A stretch of DNA of 35,258 nucleotides from a virus (Duplodnaviria > Heunggongvirae > Uroviricota > Caudoviricetes). The notes below the pieces were generated by a model. That model ran no database searches, was not told where the DNA came from, and saw nothing but the letters and a program-made list of their open reading frames with translations. Below, in pieces: positions 11,710 to 13,755 of this stretch (position 1 is its first letter; each line of letters starts with the position of its first letter). Position numbers and translations under genes: made by a program. Location of the stretch: IMG/VR virus record IMGVR_UViG_3300045988_142641; one strand, given 5' to 3'.

Positions 11710-13755
11710 TTACACCTGTGCGACGTTATACCATGTGCCATTGATGTATTTTTGTATTGGCCTGAATACTGCGGGGTCATCACCATCGACTTCACCGACA
11801 ATACCAAGCCCGGTAATTACGTGCCCTGCTTTCTCATACATCACCCCTTTCTGCATGGTCTGGACAACACGTGTGCCAAGTCTGATATCTCTCACATAGC
11901 GGGAATCAAAGTTACCGTAATCCGAGGGATTAACACGCCCCGTAATATTTATGGTCTTATTACTTTGAATGCTTCCGGAAACAAAGCGCATAACATGGAC
12001 GTTATTAGCATAAACATCCAGATTACCATCGCCATTTTGTTTAAATCCGGTGTCGTTATCACCAAGAACAATAGAGTTCCCACCCAACGCGTTATTCGTG
12101 CCAAGTGCCAGCCCGCCATCAATCCTGGCACCATTACCAACAGACACAACTCCTGTTCTTAAGTTGATGCCGAATGGCCTTAATGGCCCAATATCTCCAT
12201 TTTCACCCTCATTTTCTCGTGTAGGAATGATATACAGGTTTTCTTCAGAACGGCGAAAAATAGCCCCAAAAGATGAATTAAATATCCTCAGTGCATTGAC
12301 TGTAGATATTTTTACTTCACTGCTGAAAAGGGCTTTAACAAGAACATACAGAGCATCCCATTTAAGATTCATCAGGTCTTTTGTTGTGGTGCTCTGGCGA
12401 CTTCTCCATTTGAAATATTCATTGCCGTTGTCACCTGTTTCAAACCACATATATGAATCAGTATCGCTGTCGGCATCATTTTTAAATCCAATCTTTGCCC
12501 AGTCAGTATTTCGAATCCAGGCAAGGATTGAGTCGTTTTCAAAAGTAAGCCCACCGGACAAGGTATCGCCATTCTTTTGCACCGCGTTCCTGGCCCTGTT
12601 TACCGTTTCCTGCAAACCGAGGTATTCGATAACGGCAGTAACGGTCGCTTTAGCCAGAATATCCCGTCCGACTTTTGTCAGGGTTGCCAGGCTGGCAACA
12701 TCATTCCCCGTAAAATACGGAAACCTGTCTGCCGCAGTAGCAAGCCCCGCCAGCGCCGTCAAAGTGGCATCTTTCGGTTGCTTACCCGCAAGCGCATTAG
12801 TCATGGTGGTAGCAAAATTCGGGTCATTGCCCAGCGCCGCCGCCAGCTCGTTCAGCGTATTCAGTGCGTCAGGCGACGAGTCTACAAGGGCGGCAATCGC
12901 GGCCATAACGAAAGCCGTGTTTGCGATCTGAGTATTATTCGTTCCCTGTCGCGCAGTTGGCGTCGTTGGCGTTCCGGTCAGTGCAGGGCTGTTTAATGGC
13001 GCTTTCTTGTTCGTTTCATCCATTACCGTCTTAACGGCTTTTGGTGTTGCGGCGAGCGTCTCAGACATGCTGTTGGTCGCACTACTTAGCTGGACAAGAC
13101 CTTTTCGCGCTGTGGTAGCGTCCTGTGCGGTATATTTCCCGTTAGCAAGGTCATATGCGGCCTTAACCGCTTTCGGCGTTGCGGCCAGTGTTTCAGACGT
13201 GCTGTTGGTCGCATTGCTTAACTGAGTAAAACCTTTTGCGGTCAGCGAGGCGTCCGGGTGACGTCGTGACTGTTCATGCTCTGCAATTTTGTCATCAACG
13301 TAATCCTGCGTCGCCATCACCGTTGTGGTGTCAATGGTCAGCTCCACTGAGGCCACACTGCTGACGATGATGACCATGCGGCAGGTCTGCGAACGCCCTG
13401 AGCCTTCGGCAAGGGTAGGTTTATAACTTTCGGCCATGTTCGCCACGGCAATTAACGTTCCCGCATCATCGTACAGGCCAAGCTCTCGCATCCAGAAACC
13501 GCCCACCTCCGGCGGAATAACCAGCTCTGCGATAATATAATTACTGTTTCGTTTGTCCTGGCTGATTTTATTCAGCGCATGTCGCCAGACTTCATGGATA
13601 AGCCCGGTCTGTCCGGCATCCGGGACAGGCAATTTACCACCGCCATCCCCGACGGCCATCGTGGTAATGTTGACCTTCCGCCCTCCCGGTGCGGTTGCCG
13701 CTGCCAGCTTTGCTGCACCGGCAGTGGTGATAACGGTTCTGAATTTTGTGCTCAT
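11710..13755 (-). CDS. H: tail fibre protein H (681 aa)
   Basis: N-terminus MSTKFRTVITTAGAAKLAAATAPGGRKVNITTMAVGDGGGK... is the conserved P2-type fibre N-terminal domain; internal SETLAATPKAVK repeats. Confidence 0.9.
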   Translation of the reverse strand: MSTKFRTVITTAGAAKLAAATAPGGRKVNITTMAVGDGGGKLPVPDAGQTGLIHEVWRHALNKISQDKRNSNYIIAELVIPPEVGGFWMRELGLYDDAGTLIAVANMAESYKPTLAEGSGRSQTCRMVIIVSSVASVELTIDTTTVMATQDYVDDKIAEHEQSRRHPDASLTAKGFTQLSNATNSTSETLAATPKAVKAAYDLANGKYTAQDATTARKGLVQLSSATNSMSETLAATPKAVKTVMDETNKKAPLNSPALTGTPTTPTARQGTNNTQIANTAFVMAAIAALVDSSPDALNTLNELAAALGNDPNFATTMTNALAGKQPKDATLTALAGLATAADRFPYFTGNDVASLATLTKVGRDILAKATVTAVIEYLGLQETVNRARNAVQKNGDTLSGGLTFENDSILAWIRNTDWAKIGFKNDADSDTDSYMWFETGDNGNEYFKWRSRQSTTTKDLMNLKWDALYVLVKALFSSEVKISTVNALRIFNSSFGAIFRRSEENLYIIPTRENEGENGDIGPLRPFGINLRTGVVSVGNGARIDGGLALGTNNALGGNSIVLGDNDTGFKQNGDGNLDVYANNVHVMRFVSGSIQSNKTINITGRVNPSDYGNFDSRYVRDIRLGTRVVQTMQKGVMYEKAGHVITGLGIVGEVDGDDPAVFRPIQKYINGTWYNVAQV
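13027..13245. repeat. tandem ~85-bp duplication inside the tail fibre gene (about 130 bp period)
   Basis: Two imperfect copies of the block gttgcggc(g/c)ag(c/t)gt(c/t)tcagac(a/g)tgctgttggtcgca, encoding the repeated ...QLS(N/S)ATNS(T/M)SETLAATPKAVK... motif. Confidence 0.7.

Follow-up and report, generated by a model that had tools for sequence, protein, structure and literature searches.

The window analysed here, by which we mean the whole 35,258-nucleotide (nt) stretch of the Caudoviricetes virus record IMGVR_UViG_3300045988_142641, is a pro147/P2-like prophage, and on its minus strand it carries a long tail fibre gene, the homologue of gene H of phage P2, together with the gene for a tail fibre assembly protein, the homologue of P2 G and Mu U (Table 1). 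A first-pass annotation of the sequence had placed a tail fibre gene of 681 amino acids (aa) with a conserved N-terminal domain at this position, and both the open reading frame (ORF) and a match to the Pfam family PF12571 agree with it, residues 1–151 covering profile positions 1–150 of 150. We consider it very probable that the gene encodes the long tail fibre of a P2-like (Peduovirus, pro147-type) Escherichia coli prophage, a fibre built of exchangeable modules in which a two-copy shaft repeat is old and a distal block has been replaced.

Table 1 Features of the tail fibre gene and its assembly gene in the window (nt positions; aa numbering of the encoded protein; E, expectation value; HMM, hidden Markov model).
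Feature	Position	Strand	Evidence
Tail fibre gene, P2 gene H homologue, 681 aa	11710..13755	(-)	ORF listing, Pfam and DNA identity
N-terminal domain, aa 1–151	13303..13755	(-)	PF12571 Phage_tail_fib, E 2.9e-58
Repeat unit 1, aa 170–213	13117..13248; conserved DNA core 13162–13237	(-)	DNA repeat, Pfam and HMM
Repeat unit 2, aa 214–257, terminal type ending TVMDETNKKAPLNSP	12985..13116; core 13030–13105	(-)	DNA repeat, Pfam and HMM
Proximal shaft/'collar' region, aa 258–375	12631..12984	(-)	Shared with lambda Stf and P1 S (tblastn)
Gin/Cin/Hin-type gix-like 34-mer, aa 375–386, encoding IEYLGLQETVN	12599..12632	(-)	31/34 nt match Mu gix
Conserved block, aa 376–475	12331..12630	(-)	Common to Mu S, P2 H and numerous further fibres
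Distal block, aa 476–613, replaced relative to P2 H	11917..12330	(-)	Residue identity and indels
C-terminal ~68 aa (...RPIQKYINGTWYNVAQV), conserved in P2, Mu and P1-type fibres	11710..11916	(-)	Aligns to the Mu S C-terminus in 5yvq
Assembly gene for the tail fibre (P2 G and Mu U homologue), 175 aa	11179..11706	(-)	PF02413 Caudo_TAP, E 4.8e-35

The fibre gene sits after gene I and before assembly gene G, with intergenic spacings equal to those of P2, and window positions 14300–12331 align at 96% DNA identity with the I–H region of that phage. In binned pairwise alignments, the residues of the N-terminal domain are 92–100% identical to P2 H, and because the N-terminus of Mu gp49 docks on the wedge protein (PMC11915804), this domain would attach the fibre to the baseplate. 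Elsewhere in the protein, Pfam returned a Gp34_trimer match at aa 419–529 and a weak gp37_trimer match that lies below its cut-off. The allele is common in E. coli: 46 complete genomes carry at least 80% of the gene, with a top identity of 99.9%, near-identical fibre proteins are recorded from hundreds of contigs, and the best 120 protein matches are all near-identical and from E. coli. With regard to membership of the P2 gpH type, the PF12571 domain is present and the operon position is the same, but collinearity with P2 H over the full length is lost; this loss is the ordinary allelic mosaicism of the family and gives no ground for exclusion.

Past the N-terminal domain, the gene contains a direct DNA repeat of 76 nt with 82% identity between the copies, which are in frame and start 132 nt (44 aa) apart; with an E of 8.8e-16 for the blastn self-match, the repeat is therefore not a product of chance. 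The first-pass annotation had reported two copies of an ~85-base-pair unit, of which the two in-frame copies stand, but the period is 132 nt and the conserved part is the 76-nt core. The 26-residue cores, AKGFTQLSNATNSTSETLAATPKAVK (aa 173–198) and RKGLVQLSSATNSMSETLAATPKAVK (aa 217–242), are identical at 21 of 26 residues. Both units match the Pfam model PF03406 ("Phage tail fibre repeat") end to end, with 135.3 bits against a gathering cut-off of 22 in two stretches, the best of which spans profile positions 1–41 of 42, and a custom HMM places the units at aa 173 and 217, again 44 aa apart. Each unit consists of a conserved core of ~76–84 nt and a diverged linker of ~50 nt, the non-core parts reading AAYDLANGKYTAQDATTA in unit 1 and TVMDETNKKAPLNSP in unit 2. 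Across the whole unit, DNA identity between the two copies is just 63%, and because there are only two units at this identity, Tandem Repeats Finder reported no array for the fibre repeat. The codons of the two cores differ by eight synonymous changes, all among the 21 identical residues, and by five non-synonymous ones, and the longest exact DNA run common to the two copies is 14 nt. From these synonymous differences and the short exact run, the duplication is an old one, maintained through selection for the peptide, and nothing points to gene conversion in recent times; since the copies are so far diverged at synonymous sites, the two-copy array of the window is probably comparatively stable.

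The same two copies occur at identical residues in the H proteins of P2 and Wphi, so the duplication is not a feature specific to this prophage; it is instead the reference state of P2-type fibres, inherited from a common ancestor with P2. Among the relatives, copy number varies. Using an HMM built on nine units, we counted repeats in 79 fibres, which carry 1–5 copies each: one copy in Mu S and in the fibre of NC_070904, two in P2, Wphi, pro147 and the window, and three in P88, P88_4B11 and vB_YpM_39, while in 70 complete IMG/VR fibres with an N-terminal region at least 96% identical, taken from the best 80 matching loci, we found two copies in 29, three in seven, four in 30 and five in four. 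Unit starts are 44 aa apart throughout, except in vB_YpM_39, where the third unit begins 57 aa after the second, and in one IMG/VR fibre (L031), with a spacing of 43 aa. In NC_070904 ("Peduovirus P2"), the fibre with one copy is near-identical to P2 H on both sides of an in-register gap of 44 aa, and the single hybrid unit left behind retains the terminal type, that of unit 2. Internal units of the 3–5-copy arrays share exact runs of up to 20–38 nt, and identical runs of this length suffice for ordinary homologous recombination, given the requirements of RecA.

Beyond these phages, 1783 proteins with the unit were found among 1.84 billion cluster representatives (50% clusters; E <= 1e-3), and matched stretches per protein reach 12 and 11 at 85–87% identity and 14–17 in giant proteins, which puts two copies at the bottom end of a scale extending to 12–17. 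In three of the representatives (P0121, P0122 and P0123), with 7–12 unit copies, 44-aa variants alternate with 57-aa variants, the longer one containing ...AAGKAPSSHTHPWNQITGVPTASLTA, a pattern that is a higher-order two-unit repeat. The N-terminal regions of P0122 and P0123 are unrelated to P2 H, and these two may be fibres of the lambda Stf type.

We located the junctions between modules from pairwise protein alignments binned at 25 aa along the window protein, together with blastn. In the resulting identity matrix, breaks fall at about aa 150–175, 240–251, 375, 475, 525, 550 and 600–625. The break at aa 150–175 corresponds to the 5' edge of the array, where the identity of P88-type fibres climbs from 48–76% to 84–100% and that of vB_YpM_39 from 16–28% to 88–92%. 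At aa 240–251, all 3–5-copy IMG/VR fibres drop from 96–100% to 8–40% identity, and the DNA similarity of the multi-copy fibres ends directly behind the last unit's AATPKAVK core, beyond which two-copy fibres read TVMDETNK... and 3–5-copy fibres SAYDNAEK.... With copy number varying from 1 to 5 and both array edges acting as mosaic junctions in other fibres, these comparisons support the array as a recombination-prone shaft module at the level of the family. The first-pass annotation had regarded such repeats as substrates for fibre module exchange, a view that holds for the family; the duplication in this gene is neither distinctive nor recent.

In several 3–5-copy fibres, among them those of loci L042, L047 and L074, the last repeat is followed at about aa 330–370 by ...QKDQNGADIPGKDTFTKNIGACRAYS..., a continuation that matches the variable part of Mu S' in Protein Data Bank (PDB) entry 8ju3; here, therefore, the collar segment is missing and an S'-type distal module follows straight on the array. 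Additionally, the fibre ORFs of loci L026, L041, L052, L063 and L088, each starting at 3001, end early at 519, 487, 265, 289 and 553 aa on contigs that run on, that of L041 stopping just within the variable block (…LFSSEVKICVLP); these premature ends may be decaying genes or assembly errors.

The proximal modules recur in many other phages. Searching with aa 170–375 by tblastn matched 418 phage records: lambda stf is 75.7% identical over H aa 198–375, that is, the last repeat and the collar, and P1 S reaches 57.6%, while the match is confined to the repeats in 186 K and to one repeat in Stx phages. A PDB chain annotated 'tail collar fibers' (9d93) matches aa 239–365. Around aa 375, sequence identity sets in with Mu S and phage 503458 and breaks off with vB_YpM_39, and the block that follows, aa 376–475, is 94% identical to Mu S at the nucleotide level, with aligned residues almost all identical to PDB 5yvq.

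The fibre departs from P2 much further along. The alignment to P2 H and its relatives that the first-pass annotation had named as a check is collinear only in part, so the full-length collinearity that would have refuted its reading is absent: the H genes of P2 and Wphi are 95–97% identical to the window in DNA over nt 1–1425 (to aa 475), and the break from P2 H falls at gene nt 1425/1426 (aa 475/476), ~220 aa past the repeat, identity running on for ~700 nt beyond the array. At this same place (nt 1425–1428), identity also ends for HQ103, R18C, NC_070904 and Mu S. Over aa 476–550, residue identity to P2 H is 0–8%, and within aa 476–613 there are indels of +68 aa (in the window only) and -56 aa (in P2 only), after which the C-terminal 68 aa return to 76% DNA identity. 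The length of 669 aa that the first-pass annotation gave for P2 H agrees with NC_001895, and the excess of the present protein, 681 against 669 aa, is the net +12 of these distal indels and not a product of the repeat. An exchange of the presumed receptor-binding portion, which the first-pass annotation had thought possible, did thus take place relative to P2, in a distal block that presumably determines receptor specificity; that the repeat would mark the exchange, as it had also proposed, is contradicted by the position of the break.

A better landmark than the repeat is the crossover site at aa 375–386. On the minus strand, this gix-like 34-mer reads TTATCGAATACCTCGGTTTGCAGGAAACGGTAAA, and the Mu reference sequence used for the comparison occurs at each end of the Mu G segment as annotated; P2 H has the same relic site, likewise at 31/34 nt. 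Homology to Mu S and to the Sv cassette of the Xuanwuvirus phage 503458 begins at the site, which thereby coincides with the constant/variable boundary. Past the crossover site and up to the stop codon (gene nt 1141–2046), the distal DNA agrees at 99.3% with the invertible Sv cassette of 503458; such a cassette, from a P88-like phage, is the best match for everything between the gix-like site and the end of the gene. In phage 503458, the same site adjoins a DNA invertase gene; P88 and P88_4B11 have an alternative fibre/chaperone cassette on the opposite strand, and P88_4B11 and vB_YpM_39 an invertase gene beside the cassette. In the window, only one gix-like site was found (at no more than three mismatches to a 19-mer), tblastn with Mu Gin gave no invertase (best E 1.5), and no second pair of fibre and chaperone genes was found downstream of G. 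We therefore rejected an active invertible switch, the invertase being absent and the site single.

With a single relic site, no invertase and a match to the 503458 cassette from the site onward, the distal half of P2-type H genes is the captured and fixed half of an invertible cassette. Haggard-Ljungquist et al. are said to have noted this for the P2-type distal half as early as 1992. According to the summary in PMC8986868, Sandmeier 1994 noted it as well, and the best-working P2–P1 fibre chimeras were fused at residue 370 of P2 H (PMC9942202), consistent with a module boundary at the gix-like site. We also considered whether chaperone G had been exchanged together with the distal block, and rejected this: residue identities to P2 G (91%), Wphi G (95%), Mu U (87%), pro147 G (90%) and the 503458 chaperone (88%) put G at 87–95% for all compared chaperones, closest to that of Wphi and not to that of 503458.

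These observations may be brought together as follows. The fibre consists, in order, of the N-terminal domain, the two 44-aa PF03406 repeats (aa 170–257), the collar, the relic crossover site, the block shared with Mu S, the variable block and the conserved C-terminus, the last of which would work with the downstream assembly chaperone G. We infer that the repeats are old structural segments, kept at the protein level, of a trimeric shaft that would link the baseplate-binding N-terminus to the specificity region further out. Unequal homologous recombination among units would make the array grow or shrink in exact 44-aa steps, and the conserved core would offer a patch of homology at which differing proximal or distal modules can be joined. 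The difference from P2 would have arisen by replacement of the distal block between stretches conserved on both flanks. Some points limit this account. The IMG/VR fibres having been chosen as best matches, their copy counts are not population frequencies. A single-sequence AlphaFold2 model of aa 152–300 was all-helical with a predicted local distance difference test score (pLDDT) of 54.9 and was discarded, and the only PDB chains containing a PF03406 unit are those of the Mu S entries; the domain was described as little known in a 2012 paper (PMC3368898).

Other explanations of the repeat were weighed against the same evidence. Had a duplication specific to this lineage been made at, or marked, the swap point of the receptor-binding part, one would expect a fibre that is not collinear with P2 H, as is indeed the case, and the coincidence of mosaic junctions with array edges in other relatives also fits; yet P2 H and Wphi H have both copies in the same places, the identity to P2 extends 700 nt past the repeat to nt 1425, and the copies are old, with eight synonymous differences in 26 core codons, so that we regard this explanation as extremely improbable. 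Hardly any more credence is due to the idea that the repeat is kept as a DNA-level element, that is, a recombination site or a gene-conversion tract, rather than by selection on the protein. Copy steps of exactly one unit and junctions at the core do both need DNA homology, but eight synonymous changes among 21 identical residues and a longest run of 14 nt speak against recent conversion, the peptide motif is kept in Mu S, lambda Stf, P1 S and 186 K although their DNA is far less similar, and the one site found for a site-specific recombinase, the gix-like 34-mer, lies ~400 nt downstream.

It is likewise unlikely, if less so, that the PF03406 units serve as accessory modules for binding, such as weak binding of glycans with avidity gained through copy number, instead of as passive spacers. 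The unit is undescribed in structure and function, electron micrographs of a collagen-like prophage fibre pointed to a globular Pf2 region (PMC3368898), and copy number is highly variable, up to 17, all of which would suit a binding role; the units, however, sit beside the domain for baseplate attachment and a long way from the tip, their sequence hardly varies between fibres that differ in distal module and host, and a swap confined to the part past aa 370 was enough to retarget host range (PMC9942202). We thus retain the reading of the units as old shaft segments in a modular fibre, in which they would act as spacer or length elements. An extension of it, in which the number of 44-aa units is a fast-evolving ruler of fibre length tuned to the depth of the host surface layer, with P2-type two-copy arrays 'frozen' through their synonymous divergence and 3–5-copy arrays, which keep the longer identical runs, dynamic, seems to us doubtful.

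Comparison with known systems places the fibre among familiar relatives. P2 gpH and Wphi gpH share with it the locus order V-W-J-I-H-G, the N-terminal domain, the repeats at aa 173–198 and 217–242, the collar, the gix-like site and the C-terminus, and differ in the replaced block and in the sequence of the last 68 aa. The tail fibre of Peduovirus pro147 (YP_009207632) is also 681 aa long and is 99.7% identical in DNA and 99.9% in protein over its full length, with only a few point differences; the two prophages differ more in G and in their cargo islands. Mu S (gp49; PDB 5yvq and 9ki1) has gix at the equivalent position, encoding (I)QNLGLQETVN, a homologous distal domain and C-terminus, and one PF03406 repeat, and its solved structure matches aa 375–680 with an E of 2.5e-93; its N-terminus is different, however, and it has no collar segment. 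The Mu G segment moreover comprises two inverted gix sites, Gin and an alternative S'/U' cassette, of which the window has no more than a single site. Similarly, in phage 503458 the Sv cassette lies beside a DNA invertase and opposite an alternative fibre/chaperone pair, while in the window it is fixed in one orientation. The units themselves are not distinctive, belonging to PF03406 (Phage_fiber_2) like those of lambda Stf, P1 S and 186 K.

Apart from the fibre, the window carries two cargo islands that are absent from pro147. At the slot of the island at 25353–29275, pro147 has a retron Ec48 reverse transcriptase and effector; the island itself contains two adjacent Ser/Thr protein kinase genes at 25751–26818 and 26815–27879, both on the minus strand (Pfam Pkinase, E 6e-45 and 2e-42), which also match the PADLOC models PD-T4-6/mad6 with E ~1e-50, and after them a PP2C-like phosphatase ORF at 27872–29038, likewise on the minus strand (PF13672, E 4.7e-6). 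To judge by these matches, it is probably prophage-borne anti-phage defence cargo. The second island, at 6942–11090, lies where fun(Z) is found in P2, in the slot bounded by the tail sheath gene side and G, and its three ORFs, at 7286–8155 (plus strand, 289 aa), 8646–9785 (minus strand, 379 aa) and 10112–11056 (plus strand, 314 aa), have no Pfam or PADLOC match, although a GIY-YIG-like string can be made out by eye near the N-terminus of the 314-aa product.

The repeat, which is a curated Pfam family, the mosaicism of the fibre and the relic sites were already known; the mosaic kinship of P2 H with the fibres of Mu, P1 and lambda and the relic invertase sites were reportedly described in principle between 1992 and 1994. 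What the module map adds is a set of natural, pre-tested junctions for chimeric P2/P4 delivery particles, namely after the AATPKAVK core, at aa ~370–386, at 475/476 and at ~613. If copy number did act as a length ruler, it would give these phages a second and cheap axis of host-range adaptation besides exchange of the tip. As the presumed specificity block of this prophage differs from that of P2, its host range is likely to differ as well.

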